Origin: a virus
Length of the DNA stretch: 64,000 bases
Direction: 5' to 3' (one strand)
IMG/VR virus record: IMGVR_UViG_3300044701_001468
Both the position numbers and the translations under genes were made by a program. The notes beneath the pieces were generated by a model, which saw nothing but the letters and a program-made list of their open reading frames with translations, ran no database searches and was not told the DNA's origin. This document shows, one piece after another, positions 17,501 through 39,539 of the stretch. The first letter of the stretch is position 1. Each line of letters starts with the position of its first letter.

Positions 17501-20500
17501 TTCGTTAGAAGATAAAGTTACTGGTGAATTATCTTCGTAATATAATGGGAAAGAAGATGCAATACCATTAAATTGAGAAGATATATCTTTGATTTTTTTG
17601 AAATATTGATTATTTAATTCATTATTTTTAAATTGTATAATTCGAGCAACAATTTTTTGTGGTGGACTATCTACTCCTTCTCTATATGATGAAAGTGGTA
17701 TTGGTTGACCACCAACACTTCTATACCCAAGAGGAGCTTCTGCAAATGTAATTTGTGTTCCTGAAATAGTAAATGCTTTTCCAGGTTCTTGTAAAATACC
17801 ATCTAATGATAGAATTACATTATTGACATTAGAAACAGAATATGGAGTATTTGATCCCTTTAAAGTGATTGTGAAGGTTTTGTTACCGCTTCTGTTTCCA
17901 TTTGAATCAAAATAACCACTAAAATCTGGAGTTAGTTTGATATCATAGGAAAGCATCTCTCCCGTATCAAATGTAGATGCAAATACAGATCCTCTTCCTC
18001 TAATTACATTTAAATTTGAAAGATTAAATGTACTTTGAGTTATTACTCTATGAGTATTTTCTATGGTTACTTTATTTTTTTCAGGATCCCATAATTGAAT
18101 AAAACTTACATGATCAATTTTTGGTTGTACTGGTTTTATTTTGTTTTCTACTTCAGACTCTACAGAAACTTCTCCGAATACTTTAAATCCAGCTGGGTGT
18201 ATTGTTTGGGTAACTAAACTTCTCCAAACATCAATCGGCGTTTTGGATTTGATTACATAAGAATAATCTTGATAGAAATACGAATCTGCAATTCTTTGTG
18301 AATCTGAACTAATCTTTGATCTGTCAGAAGCGTAGTAACCCAAGTTATCATAATATGATTTTATGTTATCAGATAACAATCCAACAAAGGATTTTACTAC
18401 ATAAGCAGTTTTATTTTTAATTTTGCCAACAATGGTTAAATTTTCTTTAAATTCTCCTTCTATTTTTTCAATTCTTAGTATATTTGTATTTTCTCTCCAA
18501 CCATTTTTTGTTACAAATCCCTTAGCGATTAAAACACCACTATCGTATTGATTAATTTCTTCACCATCAATAAAGGCATTTTCTGGGAAATTATTTACCA
18601 CTAAAATACGTGGGGTTGTGAATATCTTCCTTATGGTGGTATCTCTATTATAATTCTTTCCGTTTTCTATGATCGAGATGCTCTTAGGAACTCCAATAGA
18701 TGCACTGGAAAAATATATCTTAACGTCAGTTTCGATAATTTTGATATCAGGCTGGCGATTATATCCAACACCCCTATTCTTAGTTACTATACCAGATATA
18801 GATCCGTTAGAATCCTTAATTATCTCAAATTCAGCAAATTTTCCATCAGTATTCAGTAAAATTGCCTTTGGTTTTGAATAATTTTTTCCAGAACTTATAA
18901 TATTAATAGAAGAAATATTTTTCGCAATACTATTCCAATTAACAACAGCAACACATTCGTTTTCTGCTGCTGGTCTTACTCCATACACTCTAGGAATTTT
19001 TATAAATTCTTTACCTTGATTTTCTATTACAACACTATTAATTTGCCCGACAGAAGAAGCAGAATTTGTGTTATATGCGATAGTTCCCGATCCATCATAT
19101 TTTGGATAGGAACTCATCTCATATACAATGCTATTGGGGGTTGTATATGTAACAATTTTCGATCCCTGTAGAGGATCTTCAATTAGTTTCAAATATGATT
19201 TATCTGAATCTATTATTCCTGCTTTGTCAAAATAGAAATAATTTACATATTTTGTACTAGTTTCTTTTGTAGTAGATAATACTCCATTATCATAATATGA
19301 CCCAAATCCAAATTTAACTTTAATATTTGAACCAGGAGATCCAGGAAGAATAGTATTTCTTAAACTTTCCGTTGAAATAATATTAAAATTACCACTTGGA
19401 GAAAATTCCAAGAAACTGCCAGTCAAAGAATAATGTGATGTATCAAATTTATAAGTGTAATATTTTTGAACATCGATAATTGGATTTCTTGACCAATTAA
19501 TATTATCATACGAAAATTCAAATTTATATGCTTGATTTTCGATATTATCTTTTACATATACTAGTTTTTTTGGAGTACTAGAATCAAAGAAACTAATTCC
19601 TGAGTATAAGGAATTTATGGATCCTAAAACTCTATCTACACCATAAACAACCACCAGTTCTTGAGAATTTTCATCGTAGGAAAGAACGTATCCATCTTTA
19701 TCAGTATTACCAACATGAAAATCTACTGGGAGTGTATATTTTTCGTATGCACTCGAAACTAGTTCATTGTTGAAATGATTTACGACCGTCGTTTCCTTCT
19801 GCCCACGTAGTACATCTACATATAATCCATTGTTTGAAATTGCAGTTACTTTTACAATTTCTGATCCTAGTTGTAAATAATCATTATTTGAGATAGATTG
19901 AACATCATTTAGATATAATCTAGTATTTGTTGTCGAAAATCCTACATGCGTTACTTCTAAAATCAAAAATCTCGTTGAAGTTGTAGTAACTGATCTATCC
20001 AAAGAAGAATTTTGAACGGTTAACAAATCTCCTTGTTTGTATCCTTTACCTTTAGATGTTATCGTGATTGATGTGACAACACCATTAGTAACGGAAATTG
20101 TTGCTCTAGCATTGTTAGTATTGCCTGCTTTTCCTATAACAGCATCCGAACTATTACCAACTACTCTTCCTTCAATGTCTCTGCATTTTGTAATATCATT
20201 GAAAATTAATTCAACGTTAGTAAATGTTTGATTTCCTGATGTAGTTGATGCATAATCACCAGTTGTGACAAAATTAGAATTTGCGTATGCATAAAATCGA
20301 GTTAGTGTGGCAGTACCATTAGAAACTGCTCCAGAAGAATGTGAAGGTGGAACATTCCCAGTGATTCCAGAAGTTGTTACCTGATAAACTAAAGAATTAT
20401 ACGTTAAATACTCGCCAGAAGATACTGAAGTATTTGCAGTCCATGATTTACTGGTAATATTATAACTACCATTATTTAAAACTCGTTGACTTCCTAATCC

Positions 20501-27627: not shown

Positions 27628-27889
27628 AGAGATCTCGCAGGTTGTCTTCGAGACTTTCGGTAGACTCGATGTTGCTTCCAAAGGATGAGGAGTCTTCATA
27701 AATTACATTTCCAGTTTCATCAAAAGTTGAAATATTTACTTTGTCATCAGTGCTGTATATACCCTGATACCACTTGTCTGCTAACTCTAGCATGTGATCA
27801 GCTAACTTATCATAATCAGTGAAAGTTTGATCGTCAACCACTTCACCTTCCTTGTTAACAATTTGATAATTAATCTTCTTCTCGGTCAT
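27557..27889 (-). CDS. Hypothetical acidic protein
   Basis: Likely start MTEKKINYQ at 27889. Confidence 0.65.
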   Translation of the reverse strand: MTEKKINYQIVNKEGEVVDDQTFTDYDKLADHMLELADKWYQGIYSTDDKVNISTFDETGNVIYEDSSSFGSNIESTESLEDNLRDLYGDTRTAGKGFGDSTKESRKNSK

Positions 27890-28070
27890 TTGCAAATTCC
27901 TCGTCAACTCGTTCAACTAAAATAGTGCCATCTTTGTTCACACTCCATTCTAGCACATCGCCCTCTTCCCATCCAACACTTTCTAATAGGTCTTCGGGGA
28001 GTGTTACGAAATACTCCTGAAAGTCATCATTGTATTCTACCGTTGTTTCGTATACTTTATGCATTATCAT
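27870..28070 (-). CDS. AbrB/MazE/SpoVT-like small protein
   Basis: VTLPEDLLESVGWEEGDVLEWSVNKDGTILV fits the swapped-hairpin AbrB pattern. Confidence 0.65.
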   Translation of the reverse strand: MIMHKVYETTVEYNDDFQEYFVTLPEDLLESVGWEEGDVLEWSVNKDGTILVERVDEEFANDREED

Positions 28071-28091
28071 TCATATAATCTTTTTTATATA

Positions 28092-28274
28092 TCACACTTT
28101 TGAAAGAATACGCCCATGCGGTAACCATTTCTCACACTTTGAAATCCCATAAAGAAATTCATCATATTTTTTATATGTTATTGTTACCTGTCTTCCATTG
28201 GTGCTGAAAGCATGAATCTCCATGGAACTTTGGTCTATTATAACATAACTTATCTCTTCCACAACATACTCCAA
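28092..28274 (-). CDS. Hypothetical protein
   Basis: 60-aa ORF in series with its neighbours. Confidence 0.55.
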   Translation of the reverse strand: MEYVVEEISYVIIDQSSMEIHAFSTNGRQVTITYKKYDEFLYGISKCEKWLPHGRILSKV

Positions 28275-28396
28275 AGTTCTTTCAGTACTATGTAGATATA
28301 CCCAAACTCTTCCATTCTAGTCGTCTTGGTGGACCTCGGATTGCATAGAGTAATTCCAGATTGCCATGGGCGAACGTTTTGAGGTTTTTGAGTCAT
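28250..28396 (-). CDS. Hypothetical protein (48 aa)
   Basis: Likely start MTQKPQ at 28396, with a TTRMEEFGYIYIVLKEL motif. Confidence 0.55.
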   Translation of the reverse strand: MTQKPQNVRPWQSGITLCNPRSTKTTRMEEFGYIYIVLKELWSMLWKR

Positions 28397-28538
28397 TTTT
28401 ATTTGGGAAAAATTTTTTTTATAAACGTGTAATCGATCGAGCGTTTTCAAAGTTTTGTAGGTTAATAGTATCTATGACTTTTCGCTCGGCCGCGCCGCCA
28501 TAACGATAACGTTATAATATAACTGCTGCTCTGCCCCC

Positions 28539-28748
28539 TCAGGGGAGGGCAGCGAGTGCCTTCCTGATCACGGCGGACATGCCAGGGGAGATGGTGCTGC
28601 GCCCCTTGCTGCCATGCGTCGGCAGGATGATGTCAGTCTGCCAGGCGGGGTGATTCCAGATCTGATGCGATGCTGTCGTTCGCTTGAGCACGGCGCCGCT
28701 CGCTTTCAGATCTCGCTCCGCTTGCTTCCACTTGAGAGGTGAGGGCAT
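28539..28748 (-). CDS. hicA: HicA-family mRNA interferase-like protein
   Basis: 69 aa, basic. GAVLKRTTASHQIWNHP...IILPTHG...ISPGMSAVIRKAL matches the HicA (G/A)SH...HP...P-x-H...G pattern. Confidence 0.72.
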   Translation of the reverse strand: MPSPLKWKQAERDLKASGAVLKRTTASHQIWNHPAWQTDIILPTHGSKGRSTISPGMSAVIRKALAALP

Positions 28749-28772
28749 GGTGTGATAGGATGATGGGTCGGG

Positions 28773-28970
28773 TCAGTCTTCAAATGTGGGGAGTTTGGCG
28801 ATCGCCTCATCATGATGGGTCTCGGCATACTGGGCGGCGAGGACAGAGGCAGGCAGTCCCCAATGGATGAACTGAGAGGGGCGACTGCCGTTGTTCAGTT
28901 GATCGTGGCGGGAGATCCACCGAATCTGGCGGGTGGCGAGGTCAGAGCACTGGGCGAGGGGGAAGCGCAT
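28773..28970 (-). CDS. Hypothetical early protein
   Basis: 65-aa ORF just downstream of a TAGACT -10 (28992-28997). Confidence 0.7.
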   Translation of the reverse strand: MRFPLAQCSDLATRQIRWISRHDQLNNGSRPSQFIHWGLPASVLAAQYAETHHDEAIAKLPTFED

Positions 28971-29010
28971 TGGTTGGTTGCTGATGTGGTTAGTCTACAG
29001 GGTCAGCGCC

Positions 29011-29160
29011 TCAGCGCCCATCCCAGCAGGCAGTCTGCCAACCGTCCCGCTCCATACGGCGGCGGTCGAAGTCGTCAGCATCCCAGCGATCGTCGAAGTC
29101 CATGTCGAAGATCTCGCCAGGGGCATCTTGGATCTCGGTGAAGCAGGTGTCGAATTCCAT
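29011..29160 (-). CDS. Small acidic early protein (49 aa, not in the track)
   Basis: MEFDTCFTEIQDAPGEIFDMDFDDRWDADDFDRRRMERDGWQTACWDGR, preceded by a cassette promoter and leader. Confidence 0.7.
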   Translation of the reverse strand: MEFDTCFTEIQDAPGEIFDMDFDDRWDADDFDRRRMERDGWQTACWDGR

Positions 29161-29201
29161 GGTTCGTTTCGTTTGATTGATCTTAGTCTACAGGGTCGGG
29201 G

Positions 29202-29342
29202 TCAGTCCAGCGAGGCGATCTGTGCCACCTTCTCTGCTGTCACAGCGTCAAGGGTCTGGGCAGTCTGCAGGATGGCGCCAGCGGTCTGAGAGAACATCAG
29301 CAGCAGAGCAGCAGCGAGGGCGAGGCGAAGGGTGTTTGCCAT
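29202..29342 (-). CDS. Small secreted/membrane protein (46 aa)
   Basis: Likely start MANTLRLALAAALLLMFSQTAGA, a signal-peptide-like sequence. Confidence 0.6.
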   Translation of the reverse strand: MANTLRLALAAALLLMFSQTAGAILQTAQTLDAVTAEKVAQIASLD

Positions 29343-29349
29343 GCTAGGA

Positions 29350-29511
29350 TCAGCGATCGAACTGAGCGAGGGAGGAAGGGGCGATGTGAGAGGGAGAACC
29401 ACAGGAGCGGTAGAAGTCTACCATACGCTCTGCCTCTGCCAGGGTGGGGAACCACTGCGACCGCCACTCACAGGCATTGTAGGGGGTCTGGTAGCGAACT
29501 TCGATTCTCAT
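29350..29511 (-). CDS. Hypothetical early protein (53 aa, not in the track)
   Basis: MRIEVRYQTPYNACEWRSQWFPTLAEAERMVDFYRSCGSPSHIAPSSLAQFDR, following a cassette promoter. Confidence 0.75.
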   Translation of the reverse strand: MRIEVRYQTPYNACEWRSQWFPTLAEAERMVDFYRSCGSPSHIAPSSLAQFDR

Positions 29512-29551
29512 GGTCGTCTCGTTTGGTTGACTCTGTTAGTCTAGAGGATGA

Positions 29552-29746
29552 TCAGTTGCACCAGGCGGCGAGGTGTGCCAGTTCGCCTGCCGTCTCCTGC
29601 AGGTTGGATTCGGTCAGACCAGCGAGGCAGGATTCGAGATCATCGGGGTCGATGGCGTCGATGTCCCCATTGATCTCCCATGCCTGTGCCTCAGCGAGGG
29701 CGAGGCAGCGATCACGAAGCGAGAGGGTGAAGGTCTTTTCTTTCAT
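29552..29746 (-). CDS. Hypothetical acidic early protein
   Basis: 64 aa. The TAGACT -10 (29753-29758) lies only 7 nt from the ATG, so the transcript may be nearly leaderless. Confidence 0.7.
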   Translation of the reverse strand: MKEKTFTLSLRDRCLALAEAQAWEINGDIDAIDPDDLESCLAGLTESNLQETAGELAHLAAWCN

Positions 29747-29755
29747 GCTGTTAGT

Positions 29756-29998
29756 CTAGATGGAGATGGTCTCGTGACGCTGCAGCAGGGTGCGGTTTGC
29801 CCACTGTCCCAGCGAGGTGCCAGGCATCATCAGGCGCAGCATGTCACGGCGGCGGCAGTCGTGACCGCTGACGCTGCCAGAGTGCCATTGCACGATGGCG
29901 CGACGGGTCAGGGGCGACAGGATCACACGCTCACAGGCGCTGCTAGGGCGTTGCACGTTGATGAACACAGGCAGGTGATCGATGGCGAAGTTCAGCAT
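29756..29998 (-). CDS. Hypothetical early protein
   Basis: 80 aa, following a cassette promoter (30026-30085). Confidence 0.75.
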   Translation of the reverse strand: MLNFAIDHLPVFINVQRPSSACERVILSPLTRRAIVQWHSGSVSGHDCRRRDMLRLMMPGTSLGQWANRTLLQRHETISI

Positions 29999-30082
29999 GG
30001 GTTGGGTTGTTTGGTTGACTCTGTTAGTCTAGAGGGTCGGCGGTCGATGCTGGGGGCAGCGTGTGCCACCCCCTCAGGTGTC

Positions 30083-30511
30083 CTAATAGTCGCTGAACAC
30101 AGCAACCTGACGATACTTCACTTCACAGCAGGTGAAATCGTAACGCAGGGAGGAATCGTAGGTTGCCTGCCAATCTACAACCAAAGCACAGGGAACATCG
30201 TGCAGATCGCTATAGTATTCTTCAGCGAAGTCTGCCTCAGATTCATACCAACCACGGAAGCGATCATCACATCCTTCGATGTCAGAAACGCAACCCATTT
30301 CACCAATCAAAGCATCAACGGCATCATATCCGATCGCTTCACCACAGCGGCAATACTCTTCATAATAGGAGACAAAATCGTTCTCATTGTAGGTGTCGAT
30401 GAACTCCAGCATATCATCCAGAGCATAGTTCTCATCGATCAATTCATCGATCTTCTCAACAGCAGCAGCGGAGAGAACTTCTTTGTAGTTTGCAGTCAAG
30501 GTGATGCTCAT
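30083..30511 (-). CDS. ArdA-like acidic antirestriction/DNA-mimic candidate
   Basis: 142 aa, very D/E-rich. The C-terminal FRGWYESEADFAEEYY...VP..LVVDWQATY resembles the ArdA C-terminal domain. Confidence 0.55.
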   Translation of the reverse strand: MSITLTANYKEVLSAAAVEKIDELIDENYALDDMLEFIDTYNENDFVSYYEEYCRCGEAIGYDAVDALIGEMGCVSDIEGCDDRFRGWYESEADFAEEYYSDLHDVPCALVVDWQATYDSSLRYDFTCCEVKYRQVAVFSDY

Positions 30512-30589
30512 GTCGTTTGTTTGGTTGACTCTGTTAGTATGGCAGGGATTGGGGAGGAAGTCAAGAGGTCTGTGCCACTTGTTGGATTG

Positions 30590-30757
30590 TCACATCCCGT
30601 TCAGGAAGTCTGCCATCGCCTCCTGATACTCATCATAGGTTTTGAAGCGGTCAGCGAAGCGAGCGGGCACCTTGCCATCGAACTTAGCAGGGGCGGGCAG
30701 GTCGCGCCCCTTGGCGAGGATCTGCTGTTCATAGACGTTGGGGTTGAAGCGGGTCAT
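30590..30757 (-). CDS. Hypothetical early protein (55 aa, not in the track)
   Basis: MTRFNPNVYEQQILAKGRDLPAPAKFDGKVPARFADRFKTYDEYQEAMADFLNGM, following a cassette promoter. Confidence 0.75.
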   Translation of the reverse strand: MTRFNPNVYEQQILAKGRDLPAPAKFDGKVPARFADRFKTYDEYQEAMADFLNGM

Positions 30758-30838
30758 TCGGTCTCGTTTGTTTGGTATGCTTTAGTCTACAGGGTCAGGC
30801 GGGGGATCTGGTCCCCCTTGTGCCACCTTGCCAACTGG

Positions 30839-31072
30839 TCAGGGCAGCACCGCCAGACGCTCAGCGAGTCGCGCCTTCGCTTGAATCTCCTCAAGCGAGG
30901 GGATCTGTTCAATCCAACGCATCTCACACTTAGAGTAATCGTATCCCTGAACTTCCAATTCTTTCATGTATGCCACAGCGGCGGAGTGATAATCGAACAG
31001 ACGCAGGGAAGAGAAGTCTTCACCTTCATAATCCCATCCGCCGATGACAGCGTAGGCGCGAGGCGTTTCCAT
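30839..31072 (-). CDS. Hypothetical early protein
   Basis: Likely start METPRAYAVIGGWDYEGEDF at 31072, just after the cassette leader. Confidence 0.75.
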   Translation of the reverse strand: METPRAYAVIGGWDYEGEDFSSLRLFDYHSAAVAYMKELEVQGYDYSKCEMRWIEQIPSLEEIQAKARLAERLAVLP

Positions 31073-31245
31073 TTGATCTCCGTTTCGTTTGGTATGCTTT
31101 AGTATTGCACCGATCGGGGGGCATCGCAAGGGGGTCTGTGCCACCTGTGCTAGTGTCCACTGCCCCCTAGACAGACGCCCCCTAGGCGACTAACCTAGAG
31201 GGCGGGAGGGGAGGGAAGGGGGCAGCGAAGCGGCCGCCCAGTTTG

Positions 31246-31422
31246 TTATACTTCCAGTAGTTCAGGATAGTATTGCTGAACCTCTTCATTCAGTTCTTCA
31301 TCGTTATACTTATCGTATCCCTCCATGAGATAATCGTAGCAGAGACACATCATAGTTTTGAGATCCATGTCATCCAACATTTGCTGGACAAGTTGATCCT
31401 GAAGTTCTTTGCGATCCATCAT
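31246..31422 (-). CDS. Small acidic protein (58 aa, not in the track)
   Basis: MMDRKELQDQLVQQMLDDMDLKT...YYPELLEV, with an ATGA overlap with the upstream gene. Confidence 0.75.
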   Translation of the reverse strand: MMDRKELQDQLVQQMLDDMDLKTMMCLCYDYLMEGYDKYNDEELNEEVQQYYPELLEV

Positions 31423-31544
31423 TTGTTCAGGGGAGAATTGTAGAAAGATTTGAACACCGAAATCACAATGATAGCGGTGGAGATGACACCAACGAACCCG
31501 AGGTAAGTTACAGCGTCACCAGTGAAATTGTAAGATTCAGGCAT
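31419..31544 (-). CDS. Small single-pass membrane protein (41 aa, not in the track)
   Basis: MPESYNFTGDAVTYLGFVGVISTAIIVISVFKSFYNSPLNK, following a cassette promoter. Confidence 0.7.
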   Translation of the reverse strand: MPESYNFTGDAVTYLGFVGVISTAIIVISVFKSFYNSPLNK

Positions 31545-32021: not shown

Positions 32022-32108
32022 AAGATTCTGAGGTTTCTGAGAATTTTAAGTTTTCAAGGTTTCTGAGAATTCAAAGTTTGTTAAAATTCTCAGAAACCTC
32101 AGAATCTT
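32022..32108. repeat. Perfect 28-bp inverted repeat with 31-nt spacer
   Basis: AAGATTCTGAGGTTTCTGAGAATTTTAA (32022-32049) pairs with TTAAAATTCTCAGAAACCTCAGAATCTT (32081-32108). A third GGTTTCTGAGAATT copy lies in the spacer. Confidence 0.9.
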
Positions 32109-32422
32109 CAGTTCAGGCGCATTCCAGAAAAGAAAGGAATTGCACCGCCTTCCTGACTCACAAACCACTCAAATTTCTTCTGAAACACACGCTCACCAGG
32201 GATACCATGCTCACAGAGAATAGCATTCAGGCGAGACTTGGTGGTGTTAGATTGCCAACCACCATCAAAAAGAGTAACAAAGCACTCGCCAATCTCAGCG
32301 ATTTTGTTACCATGCAGGAAGACTTCGCTCACACCATCATTGGTGACAACTTTGGTGTTATCTTTCTGCCAATCTTTGCCGTTGGTGATAGCGGCGTTCA
32401 TTTGGCGTTCGATGAGGCGCAT
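32108..32422 (-). CDS. Conserved phage hypothetical protein
   Basis: Likely start MRLIERQM at 32422, after promoter TTGACT-17-CATACT (32447-32475). It has LHGNKIA...DGGWQSNTTKSRLNA motifs. Confidence 0.8.
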   Translation of the reverse strand: MRLIERQMNAAITNGKDWQKDNTKVVTNDGVSEVFLHGNKIAEIGECFVTLFDGGWQSNTTKSRLNAILCEHGIPGERVFQKKFEWFVSQEGGAIPFFSGMRLN

Positions 32423-32530
32423 GGGTCGTTTGCTGTTGACTTGGTTAGTATGGAGCCGATCAGGGCAAAAGTCAACCCCCCTAACCATCACCTTTGCTTA
32501 TGGGTTCGATCAGGGGGGCTTATCGTTGAG

Positions 32531-32594
32531 TTTTCCACAGGGTTGTGGAAAACTATTGAAAGTTTTCCACAGGTTTTAGTATATCTGTGGAAAA
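32531..32594. promoter_or_regulatory. Cluster of four DnaA boxes in alternating orientation
   Basis: TTTTCCACA 32531-32539, TGTGGAAAA 32544-32552, TTTTCCACA 32563-32571 and TGTGGAAAA 32586-32594, all intergenic. Confidence 0.75.
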
Positions 32595-32602
32595 CTATTT
32601 AC

Positions 32603-32767
32603 TTACCATTCAATATTATCTCCATCAAACTTAATTCTTTTCTGCTTCTTAGGAGTGCGTCCGAGATTCTTAATCTTAACGCCATACGTATTCTCTACTA
32701 CTTGTTCATCAAACTCGTCGAAATCTTGATAGAAATCGTTTTTGTTGGAGTTCTTACTACGTGCCAT
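32603..32767 (-). CDS. Hypothetical protein (54 aa, not in the track)
   Basis: MARSKNSNKNDFYQDFDEFDEQVVENTYGVKIKNLGRTPKKQKRIKFDGDNIEW. Confidence 0.65.
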   Translation of the reverse strand: MARSKNSNKNDFYQDFDEFDEQVVENTYGVKIKNLGRTPKKQKRIKFDGDNIEW

Positions 32768-32835
32768 TTGTTTGTTCTAAGGTGTCTACAATCGTCTGTA
32801 AGGGATATTGACAACCAAATTGGTGCAATCACCCC

Positions 32836-32865
32836 TTGACAAACATATTTATTGTGTGCTAGGGT
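32836..32865 (+). promoter_or_regulatory. Counter-oriented sigma70-like promoter
   Basis: TTGACA-18-TAGGGT with an extended -10 TG at 32857-32858. Confidence 0.5.
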
Positions 32866-33110
32866 CAGTCAACCAGCAGTTTCAGAGTGCCTTCGTTGAC
32901 ACTCTGGTTGATGAATCGACCCACCGAGATATCCTCAGAGTCGAATTCAGCAAGCAACTGACTATCAAATCCGACAGCATCTTCAGTGCTGTAAGTATAA
33001 GATTTGTCGGAATTGCTATTATACTGAATAGAAACCGTGTTCTTTTCAGTATCAATAACAATGTTTTTGATAGCAGAACTAGGAACTTCTTGGTAGTTTT
33101 TAACAGACAT
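32865..33110 (-). CDS. KTSC-domain-like protein
   Basis: SSAIKNIVID...VSIQY...YTY...SVGRFIN pattern. It has its own promoter, TTGACA-17-TATTAT (33138-33166). Confidence 0.6.
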   Translation of the reverse strand: MSVKNYQEVPSSAIKNIVIDTEKNTVSIQYNSNSDKSYTYSTEDAVGFDSQLLAEFDSEDISVGRFINQSVNEGTLKLLVD

Positions 33111-33169
33111 TCGATTGATTTGATCGATTACTTAGTAATAATACTATGGTCTTCTGAGTTTGTCAAGGG

Positions 33170-33390
33170 TTTTTTGATTAGTTTAACTTATATAACAATA
33201 GTATTATATTATAATATGTTATTATAATTATAATGTTTCTCAAAATTCTCAGAAATCTCAAAAACTTAAAAAACTTAAATATTAAGATTTCTAAAAAACT
33301 CGAAAACCCTTGGAAATACAGAATTCTCGGTTTTGACGCTTTTGAGATTTCCGAGATTTTTGAAATTTCTGAGATTTTTGGGTTTCCACA
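33170..33390. repeat. AT-rich tract with (T/C)GAGATTT / AAATCTCA short repeats
   Basis: A near-pure A/T run at 33181-33233, then CTCAAAATTCTCAGAAATCTCAAAAA facing TTTTGAGATTTCCGAGATTTTTGAAATTTCTGAGATTTTTG. Confidence 0.7.
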
Positions 33391-33396
33391 CAAAGC

Positions 33397-33473
33397 TTGA
33401 CAACTCGTTAGGTCGCGTGCTAAGACTACAACAACTCAGAGCATTTCGTAGCATATACGAAGGTTTCTGAGTT
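33397..33473 (+). ncRNA. Putative promoter plus hairpin RNA (counter-transcript)
   Basis: TTGACA-18-TAAGAC(T) with an extended TG, followed by the hairpin AACTCAGA/TCTGAGTT enclosing TTCGTA/TACGAA (33433-33473). Confidence 0.35.
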
Positions 33474-33555
33474 CATTATACTATTTCTACACACTATAAC
33501 ACTATCGTTATACATCACCAAACTATATTTAATTAAACCTTTCTTAATCTAATAG

Positions 33556-33576
33556 TTTTCCACAGGTTTTTCCACA
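33556..33576. promoter_or_regulatory. Second DnaA-box cluster (two direct boxes)
   Basis: TTTTCCACA at 33556-33564 and 33568-33576, plus a 1-mismatch box GTTTCCACA at 33382-33390. Confidence 0.7.
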
Positions 33577-33603
33577 ACCTGACTATACCAGCACCTAGAC
33601 AAC

Positions 33604-34305
33604 TCAATAAAACGTAGACTGTAACTTAAATGTTTCATTCCGCAACCTTTGTATATCACTCAGACTATACTCTTCATCTACTACTACATTATACTCTAAT
33701 GATCGTTTCATTGGTATGATTTGCATCATTGGTGTACCCACTGGTATAAGAGTAACACCATCAAGTACATGCCAAAAGAATTGTACATTAAGAGATGATG
33801 ATTCTTGAGGATCAAGGATACCAGTTGTATGAGTAAACCTCACTTCATTATTATAGTGTACATGAGTAATAAGAAATACAATATCTTTAGGTGCTTGTAC
33901 TCTCCATCCAAAATCAAATTTAAATATGGATGATAATGATGAGTGAGGTGTTGAGTGATATTGAGAAAATAATTCTGGTGGATGTAGGGAGAATTGTATA
34001 GGAGAATCTGTTGCTGCTATATTAACGATTGGCGACTGATGATTAGAGTCAGTGACGACACGAATATCTGTAGGTGTAGGTAATATCCATCCTGTATTCA
34101 TCATTGAGCGAATACCAGGGCACTTAGCAATATTACCTATACGTTGAGTGAATGGGCATTTTTTAGTATGAAGATCTTTTGTCAGTTGTTTATACTGCTG
34201 ATGTGGTTGTTGTAACCAAGATCTTTGAATTGATTGTGCTGATACGATTGGATAGTTTGCTGCGACACCATCAATGATATTATAGAATCGAATATTACGT
34301 TTCAT
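33604..34305 (-). CDS. Cyanophage-type hypothetical protein (possible dUTPase-like beta fold)
   Basis: 233 aa with KCPGI...GWILP, HFW-like QFFWH and GTPMMQIIPMKR motifs. Confidence 0.7.
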   Translation of the reverse strand: MKRNIRFYNIIDGVAANYPIVSAQSIQRSWLQQPHQQYKQLTKDLHTKKCPFTQRIGNIAKCPGIRSMMNTGWILPTPTDIRVVTDSNHQSPIVNIAATDSPIQFSLHPPELFSQYHSTPHSSLSSIFKFDFGWRVQAPKDIVFLITHVHYNNEVRFTHTTGILDPQESSSLNVQFFWHVLDGVTLIPVGTPMMQIIPMKRSLEYNVVVDEEYSLSDIQRLRNETFKLQSTFY

Positions 34306-38288: not shown

Positions 38289-39539
38289 TCATGCAATAAT
38301 GCTGGTGGGCGGCACCCCCTTCACAAAGATAGCATCAACAACTGCCTGCAGACGTTTCTGAATCTGAGCACCATAATTGCCGTAGATGGGTACAGTTACG
38401 AAACCAAAAGGTTTGCGATAGTTACCCAGATCACCAGCGGTAATCTTACCTTCCGCAATGTCACGCGCATCATCAGCATTCATGCGGATCACACGACCAA
38501 TGGTTTGCGCCATCTCTACGATGTTAAGGTTACGAAGCAGCACACAATGCGTCAGACCAGGCACATTCATACCCTCAGACAGGATAGAATAGTGAAACAC
38601 AACAAACTTACGATTGGGATCTTTGCCCCACGCAGTCAACGTGTCAAAGAATACCTCACGATTTACTTTGGTCTTGTTGATATATGCACCATGCTTAGCA
38701 GTGATGTGCATCACATCATAACCACGCTCAGTGAGATCCTGCAGCATAGAAGTTGCAGCAACCATTCCCCAAATAATCTTGCTGCTAGGTGCTGCTACGA
38801 GGATTTTCTGCCCAGCATCAGCATCAAGATTATCAATGATGTCAAGCACAGTATTGCTATCGCAATCAGCAGCGTTAGACTTGGTGCGAGCAACTGCAGG
38901 TTGCTCATGAACAACAATCTGGGGAGGAATGATGCTGCCAGACTCAATCAATTCCTGAGCAGGAACGATGTGAAGAGTCTTACCGAACACCAGAGAGTTG
39001 TTCATACCACGACCCATAGGATTCTTCGACTGACGAGGAGTTGCAGTGAAGAAGTAGCAGGCATTTGCCATCTGAGAAACCATAGCAGTTTTAGGAAAGA
39101 ACTGCCTGCTGGTAGCATTGTGTGCTTCATCGAAGTAAGCAACATCAATATCTACACCTGCCTCAACAATCTTGTGCAGAGAGTTGTAGGTAGTGAAGAT
39201 CAAGCAAGACTCACCAGCAGCGCGGGCAGTGTTGTTAAACAGACCAATCTTATCAGATTTGGTGCTGCTGAAGTGATGAGTATCACCAGAGTGAACATGA
39301 AGAATGTGAACATTCTTGGTGTCAATTACTTGCAGGTATTCTTCACACAACTGGTTGACCAGCAGCAGGCGGGGGCAGACCACAACCGCCGTCAGACCAC
39401 GCTGAGAGGCGCTCAGACGGCGCTGGAGGTCCATGATGGCAATCAGAGTCTTGCCGCCGCCAGTGGGCACCAGAACGCTGCCGTGGGACGCTTGGAGCAT
39501 GGCATCGAGAGCAGTCTGCTGGTGGGGGCGAAGTTTCAT
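38289..39539 (-). CDS. SF2 helicase, type III restriction Res-subunit-like (DEAH)
   Basis: PTGGGKT, DEAH, TAT, SEGMNVPG and QTIGRVIR motifs. It has its own promoter, TTGACG-17-TATTAT (39563-39591). Confidence 0.88.
   Translation of the reverse strand: MKLRPHQQTALDAMLQASHGSVLVPTGGGKTLIAIMDLQRRLSASQRGLTAVVVCPRLLLVNQLCEEYLQVIDTKNVHILHVHSGDTHHFSSTKSDKIGLFNNTARAAGESCLIFTTYNSLHKIVEAGVDIDVAYFDEAHNATSRQFFPKTAMVSQMANACYFFTATPRQSKNPMGRGMNNSLVFGKTLHIVPAQELIESGSIIPPQIVVHEQPAVARTKSNAADCDSNTVLDIIDNLDADAGQKILVAAPSSKIIWGMVAATSMLQDLTERGYDVMHITAKHGAYINKTKVNREVFFDTLTAWGKDPNRKFVVFHYSILSEGMNVPGLTHCVLLRNLNIVEMAQTIGRVIRMNADDARDIAEGKITAGDLGNYRKPFGFVTVPIYGNYGAQIQKRLQAVVDAIFVKGVPPTSIIA

Follow-up and report, generated by a model that had tools for sequence, protein, structure and literature searches.

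Six perfect copies of the 9-mer TTTTCCACA are packed into 1046 bp (32531-33576) of the genome of a T4-like cyanomyovirus, where they form two clusters, each of which lies beside a putative early-type promoter, one of these promoters being apparently non-coding and antisense. At a confidence that we would put at about even, we read them as an array, acting in cis, on which the DnaA protein of the host would dock and gate a non-coding promoter cassette.

The window analyzed here, the whole 64-kb stretch of DNA, is part of a 103.7-kb IMG/VR contig that is estimated to be ~54% complete. The contig belongs to a T4-like cyanomyovirus, with gp25, gp6 and other structural genes present; among cultured phages, it is closest to those of Synechococcus, S-PM2 for example, with a patchy DNA identity of just 71-85%. 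All genes near the box locus are on the minus strand, and many of them are small early genes without known function. Leftward of the locus lie an ArdA-like gene and then gp25-gp6, and rightward, beyond the phrog_7084 gene, genes for a methyltransferase, an endonuclease and a DEAD-type helicase. Synteny with the T4 oriF region (uvsW, the origin, gene 25) was considered and rejected: the 416-aa helicase encoded at 38289-39539 contains generic DEAD/ResIII domains and no match to the solved UvsW. Between gp25 and the box locus there is a GC-rich island (27870-31500; GC content of 0.48-0.54 compared to 0.32-0.38 around it) that contains an antitoxin domain resembling MazE (27870-28070), the ArdA-like anti-restriction gene (30083-30511) and, under the Pfam cut-off, a weak HicA-like match (28539-28748), with four copies of GTTAGTCTA located between the small genes of the island (28989, 29535, 29750 and 30023). 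The elements of the box locus and its immediate neighborhood are as follows.

32108-32491, minus strand: gene of the Kyano_Gp96 family (PF23790 / phrog_554), with the family match from residue 24
32447-32475, minus strand: promoter-like site of the Kyano_Gp96 gene (TTGACT, 17 nt, CATACT), with GGGGGTTGACTTT conserved in relatives
32531-32594, no strand assigned: cluster 1, with four perfect copies of TTTTCCACA arranged + - + -
32603-32767, minus strand: 54-aa ORF between clusters 1 and 2, no family match
32865-33110, minus strand: 81-aa gene (phrog_4357), driven by the putative promoter P-
33138-33166, minus strand: P-, putative promoter (TTGACA, 17 nt, TATTAT; 11/12 match), leftward, in the sense direction
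33150-33300, no strand assigned: AT-rich block, GC 15-19%
33237-33380, no strand assigned: arrays of 9-bp repeats, TTCTCAAAA x3 and inverted TGAGATTTC x3.9
33382-33390, plus strand: one-mismatch box GTTTCCACA, just upstream of the -35 of P+
33397-33426, plus strand: P+, putative promoter (TTGACA, 18 nt, TGc-TAAGAC) that opposes all neighboring genes
33433-33473, plus strand: hairpin at the predicted start of the P+ transcript (173-nt fold, z = -4.9)
33556-33576, plus strand: cluster 2, two perfect direct TTTTCCACA boxes, 12 bp apart
33604-34305, minus strand: 233-aa gene (phrog_7084), with its 3' end toward cluster 2

Because the Kyano_Gp96 family match begins at residue 24, the true start of this gene is probably M24 at 32422, so that the gap that contains cluster 1 probably spans ~180 bp (32423-32602) and the TTGACT-17-CATACT site (32475-32447), which falls within the nominal start of the ORF, probably is the gene's own promoter. 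Cluster 1 starts 56 bp upstream of the -35 element and occupies positions 56-120 bp upstream of this promoter. No tRNA or Rfam RNA was detected in the gap; the sole Rfam matches are spurious microRNA hits to a long, near-perfect hairpin (32022-32107) located directly 3' of the Kyano_Gp96 stop codon. On the transcribed strand, this hairpin folds at -43 kcal/mol (z = -7.95), and its building blocks are TTCTSAGAA units, a word family to which the 9-bp repeats at 33237-33380 also belong; of the five exact copies in the window, four are inside this 1.2-kb region.

The perfect boxes are located at 32531(+), 32544(-), 32563(+), 32586(-), 33556(+) and 33568(+). The first-pass annotation had reported four alternating boxes within 64 bp, two direct boxes approximately 1 kb away, a near-match at 33382 and two isolated copies elsewhere; all of the coordinates are exact, the two direct boxes are present, the near-match is GTTTCCACA, and the only other copies in the window are those at 27(-) and 51332(-). 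The boxes of cluster 1 form inverted pairs with spacers of 4 nt and 14 nt. The further statement that the boxes flank an A/T tract holds in the sense that the AT-rich block lies between the two clusters, an interval that also contains two small genes.

The 64-kb window contains 8 copies of TTTTCCACA compared to 1.43 expected and a maximum of 4 in 100 shuffled sequences, and the Poisson probability of finding 6 or more copies in 1046 bp is ~2e-13. In the whole 103.7-kb contig, the count remains at 8, compared to none for the reversed control word. In an unbiased scan of all 9-mers, a k-mer check that had been called for, TTTTCCACA is the most locally clustered 9-mer of the contig. The one-mismatch variants of TTTTCCACA, in contrast, occur at the chance level (31 found and 30 expected); the excess is therefore confined to perfect sites, and selection appears to act on these. 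The one-mismatch box GTTTCCACA is not conserved in two relative loci (L016 and L019).

The enriched word is identical to the published species-specific consensus of the cyanobacterial DnaA box, and in Cyanothece and Anabaena, DnaA has been found to bind the TTTTCCACA box in vitro (PMC4674748). With six perfect boxes in 1046 bp, the locus thus has the composition of an oriC-type box cluster that matches the host DnaA consensus. The contig and five complete genomes of box-positive phages were searched for a gene with a DnaA domain IV, and none was found, so a binder of the DnaA class would have to be that of the host.

A search of IMG/VR for the inverted box pair retrieved at least 120 loci, of which 73, among the matches listed, share genes or synteny with the contig; in these 73 loci, the boxes are located 2.5-6 kb upstream of gp25-gp6, often beside a Kyano_Gp96 homolog. 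Since this set was chosen by the motif itself, two motif-blind samples were drawn. The first consists of cultured phages found via gp25 and taken in even steps down the ranking, with the addition of S-PM2. Of the 13 Kyanoviridae, 8 have at least two boxes that lie within 60 bp of each other at a distance of 4-8 kb upstream of gp25-gp6 (S-PM2, ACG-2014a, S-RIM2, S-SSM5, S-RIM12, Syn9, ACG-2014d and S-RIM32), and none of the sampled complete genomes contains a second box locus. The remaining five (S-H9-1, ACG-2014f, P-SSM4, S-CAM7 and P-TIM40) have no boxes, degenerate ones included, which indicates that docking of DnaA is not essential to the family. In T4, phiM7 and T4-like phages of Vibrio and Acinetobacter, no cluster of TTTTCCACA or of TTATCCACA was detected. 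The second sample consists of IMG/VR relatives found via gp25 with at least 5 kb of upstream sequence; here, the cluster is present, again 4-8 kb upstream of gp25-gp6, in 9 of the 14 loci, which, given the duplicate contigs among them, represent six distinct viruses, and the control word is clustered in none of the 14. Both the enrichment over shuffled sequences and the conservation in relatives, for which the first-pass annotation had asked, are thus borne out.

The two-cluster layout, with four boxes followed by two or three more ~1 kb away, persists down to 62-76% identity of gp25. The boxes of cluster 1 are invariant in six of the seven motif-blind relatives, with variable spacers. Cluster 2 varies in the number and orientation of the boxes, with a direct pair in the present contig, an inverted pair in L016, and three boxes in L019 and S-PM2; what is conserved at cluster 2, by comparison of these loci, is the presence of boxes and not a hairpin. 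Elsewhere, loci with up to 8 perfect boxes were found, and many relatives have only two or three. The distances between neighboring boxes in the 73 loci, among the matches listed, peak at 11-13, 21-24 and 34-35 bp, with a contribution from direct repeats at 11-12 and 21-22 bp, which were not selected by the search pattern; this periodicity fits what would be expected if the bound proteins were lined up along a single face of the helix. The flanks of the phage boxes are biased (60% have A at -2, 65% have G at -1 and 94% have R at +1). No clear bias is apparent in 13 host boxes, so that the phage flanks are more constrained; the tighter flanks could reflect either a different binder or merely shared descent.

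Two observations on the relatives concern individual sequences. The 10-nt spacer between boxes 2 and 3 (32553-32562) occurs among the relatives, L317 and L328 included, either as ctattgaaag or as its reverse complement, ctttcaatag, a reversal that would result from a recombination flip between inverted boxes. In S-PM2 (NC_006820.1, 17.4-19.3 kb; locus L129), RefSeq places tRNA features, some of them over three DnaA boxes at 19231-19264; ARAGORN found no tRNA in the 12-kb S-PM2 locus, and the RefSeq tRNA coordinates look misplaced.

The 493-bp gap between the 81-aa and 233-aa genes (33111-33603) contains, in this order, P-, the AT-rich block, the repeat arrays, P+, the hairpin and cluster 2. 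The equivalent of P- in Syn9 is a perfect TTGACA-17-TATAAT promoter. The AT-rich block is separated from cluster 2 by 250 bp and from cluster 1 by 560 bp, and the stretch immediately upstream of cluster 2 has a GC content of 28-33%. The TTCTCAAAA and TGAGATTTC arrays, which could be iterons or phased A-tract bends, make up 33-nt inverted arms between P- and P+ and are also found in L016 and L019.

No ORF was found downstream of P+. This putative promoter combines a perfect -35 element and a TG motif with a weak -10 element (TAAGAC), and because the -10 ends in C, it falls below the threshold of the consensus scan. Its core, cgtgcTAAGAC, is kept in S-PM2, Syn9, S-RIM2, S-RIM32 and ACG-2014d, and in another group of relatives, the same place is taken by a perfect TTGACA-17-TACAAT. 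The 120 bp downstream of P+ have a GC content of 28-38%, and the predicted RNA is G-poor (GC skew of ~-0.5). The boxes of cluster 2 (33556 and 33568) are 125-145 bp downstream of the predicted start; across the related loci, the distance from P+ to the first box ranges from ~75 to 240 bp. With a loose promoter pattern, for which we estimate an expectation of ~0.02 per locus, P+-like sites facing the boxes were found in 42 of the 73 related loci and P--like sense sites in 51 of the 73, in both cases among the matches listed.

The same layout of promoters and boxes is found in S-PM2 and Syn9; this promoter context had escaped the first-pass annotation. P-TIM40 keeps the back-to-back promoters and has no boxes, which suggests that boxes were added to a promoter cassette that is older than they are. 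A second conserved element, at 32826-32858 between the 54-aa and 81-aa genes, is kept in L016 and L019; it carries TTGACA-17-TAGGGT on the plus strand and a late-type TAAATA on the strand of the genes. In Syn9 (NC_008296.2, 52477-52635), an annotated 52-aa 'gp86' spans the box pair and the antisense promoter region and is probably non-coding DNA rather than a gene.

The docking array, as we envisage it, would work as follows, with the binding of DnaA to the boxes, the firing of P+ and any link to replication inferred from sequence. Host RNA polymerase would fire the sigma-70-type promoters right after infection, and bound DnaA would stimulate or block transcription from the promoters of the cassette, such that the non-coding P+ transcript would become coupled to the state of the host DnaA. 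This transcript might then prime or activate a T4-type origin, with DnaA as a gate or a roadblock and not as a melter. The P+ cassette is the best candidate for a transcript-primed origin.

Several observations argue against this scheme. The -10 element of P+ is weak and the promoter failed the consensus scan; the variable distance from P+ to the boxes is unsuited to a precise operator; and G-poor RNA, such as that predicted for P+, does not generally favor R-loops. Furthermore, the flanking genes are co-directional and the GC skew, which had been put forward as an origin marker, shows no turn at the box locus. The lack of boxes in 5 of the 13 cultured relatives and the tighter constraint on the flanks of the phage boxes compared to the host boxes also count against docking.

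The host origins provide the natural reference for the phage array. The host sample comprised 40 genomes of the family because the first Synechococcus genome came without dnaN; a scan of prokaryotes for the inverted box pair was swamped by chance matches and other phyla and left one usable Synechococcus genome. The 150-350 bp that precede dnaN were examined in 26 picocyanobacterial genomes and contain 1-6 sites within one mismatch of TTTTCCACA, mostly degenerate, with 0-3 perfect boxes, so that the phage locus, with its six, exceeds the host origin in perfect boxes. The identification of TTTTCCACA as a cyanobacterial DnaA box in the first-pass annotation accordingly agrees both with the published consensus and with these degenerate versions in the hosts. 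The 1.9-Mb genome of a marine Synechococcus, which encodes DnaA, contains 24 perfect copies of TTTTCCACA compared to 4 of the control word.

This abundance of perfect boxes in the phage is compatible with a DnaA sink, in which they would titrate host DnaA, increasingly as the phage genomes multiply, such that no new rounds of host replication begin and nucleotides and replisome parts are freed. The E. coli datA locus, which works with IHF and promotes the hydrolysis of DnaA-ATP, is a parallel: it likewise consists of high-affinity boxes outside the origin that are able to hold DnaA, but those of the phage are linked to promoters, with no known helper site. With a hundred phage copies, the phage boxes would exceed the 24 perfect ones of the host genome many-fold; the enrichment is limited to perfect and presumably highest-affinity sites, with no unwinding element alongside; and the trait is optional in the family, as would be the case for an accessory trait of host takeover. 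A sink, however, needs no fixed place, whereas the boxes are always found in the same cassette, downstream of the antisense promoter, which favors a role in cis over a pure sink. Moreover, many relatives keep only two or three boxes, a small sink before replication, and in any event, T4-like cyanophages shut off their host or degrade it. On balance, we consider titration as the function of the boxes unlikely.

A copy of oriC, at which box-bound DnaA would melt the adjacent DNA and load the helicase, would account for several phased consensus boxes, an AT-rich block nearby, a single locus per genome and repeat arrays that resemble plasmid iterons. The phage array shares with picocyanobacterial oriC the consensus 9-mer, the clustering and the presence of boxes in both orientations. 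The two differ in the DnaA-trios, three or more repeats with the consensus 3'-GAT-5' located within 16 nt of a box, at which DnaA melts the DNA (PMC8287927). In the host origins, mostly degenerate boxes are combined with such trios: in 9 of the 26 loci, the dnaN-proximal site consists of a box, 10-13 nt and (CTA)3-4. In the phage array, the boxes are perfect and the trios are missing: the runs at the six boxes reach at most 3 generic trios, a length that arises by chance 40% of the time, with no CTA run, and a box followed by three YTA repeats was found in none of the 73 phage loci, among the matches listed, compared to 9 of the 26 host loci. The absence of trios both here and in these loci implies that the locus is not an oriC-type unwinding module. 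Furthermore, the AT-rich block is 250-560 bp away with genes intervening, the 5 box-negative relatives among the 13 presumably replicate without boxes, and T4-type phages prime replication via transcripts and recombination (PMC3016281). The host-like origin suggested in the first-pass annotation hence survives as far as the boxes, their enrichment and their conservation are concerned and is not supported as a strict copy of oriC, given the lack of trios and the relatives without boxes; DnaA-driven melting at this locus is, in our estimate, quite improbable.

Equally improbable, in our view, is a third possibility, namely, that a phage early protein or another host factor binds the 9-mer, whose identity with the DnaA box would be coincidental. 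The flank bias of the phage boxes, which is unclear in the 13 host boxes, the enrichment of exact copies alone and the nearby small early genes without known function are all compatible with such a binder; against it, a 9/9 match to the consensus of the host initiator is very unlikely to arise by chance, T4-like phages of non-cyanobacterial hosts have no clusters of TTTTCCACA or TTATCCACA, and no DnaA-like DNA-binding domain is encoded. Finally, a role of the inverted boxes at the RNA level, as hairpins between early genes that terminate, process or stabilize transcripts, is highly implausible: a scan did call two terminator-like hairpins on the plus strand (32543-32596), with stems of up to 11 bp (AGTTTTCCACA / TGTGGAAAACT), but this strand has no upstream gene, cluster 2 is a direct repeat that cannot pair, the relatives contain direct arrays with spacings of 11-12 and 21-22 bp, the loops range from 3 to 26 nt, the arms never co-vary, and the pairing expected of an intrinsic terminator is not kept across relatives.

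The docking array that we favor instead finds its closest parallel in phage lambda. In lambda, two footprint-confirmed DnaA boxes are located downstream of pO, the antisense oop promoter beside ori-lambda, and DnaA stimulates the origin-activating transcription (PMC3985674). At the sequence level, the present locus has the same composition, that is, at least two boxes downstream of a short, putatively non-coding promoter directed against the main transcription. In both cases, the host initiator would modulate origin-linked transcription rather than melting, a role that is only predicted for the phage described here. The differences are that lambda, a temperate phage, encodes its own initiator O and has iterons, whereas the present phage is lytic and T4-like, with no known initiator, and that there are up to six perfect boxes here and eight elsewhere. 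By analogy, the design of the array would seem closer to that of lambda than to oriC.

The T4 origins consist of a promoter followed by an AT-rich element, with the transcript used as primer, and oriE combines an early promoter with spaced repeats; DnaA is not mentioned in the review of these origins (PMC3016281). The phages are related, and the cassette described here resembles oriF (uvsY) and oriG (gene 34) in its putative promoter and AT-rich stretch, with a transcript that would serve replication and not coding, and oriE in its early promoter and evenly spaced direct repeats. Unlike the cassette, the T4 origins have no DnaA boxes, and middle promoters in T4 depend on MotA. Tentatively, and with clearly less confidence than in the docking array itself, we suggest that T4-like cyanophages might have a single transcript-primed origin, gated by host DnaA, at which the first round of replication is started or timed.

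In the literature searched, we found no paper that links TTTTCCACA or DnaA boxes to cyanophages. Among the viruses that infect the main primary producers of the ocean, T4-like cyanophages rank with the most abundant, and their origins are unmapped. If the docking array is real, a lytic phage with its own replisome would still read or drain the initiator of its host, and the dynamics of infection would be tied to the cell cycle and growth state of the host. If these phages do have a DnaA-gated origin, it would be the first one linked to DnaA in any lytic phage of the T4 type, and infection would then be tied to the replication state of the host and hence to its growth and light state.
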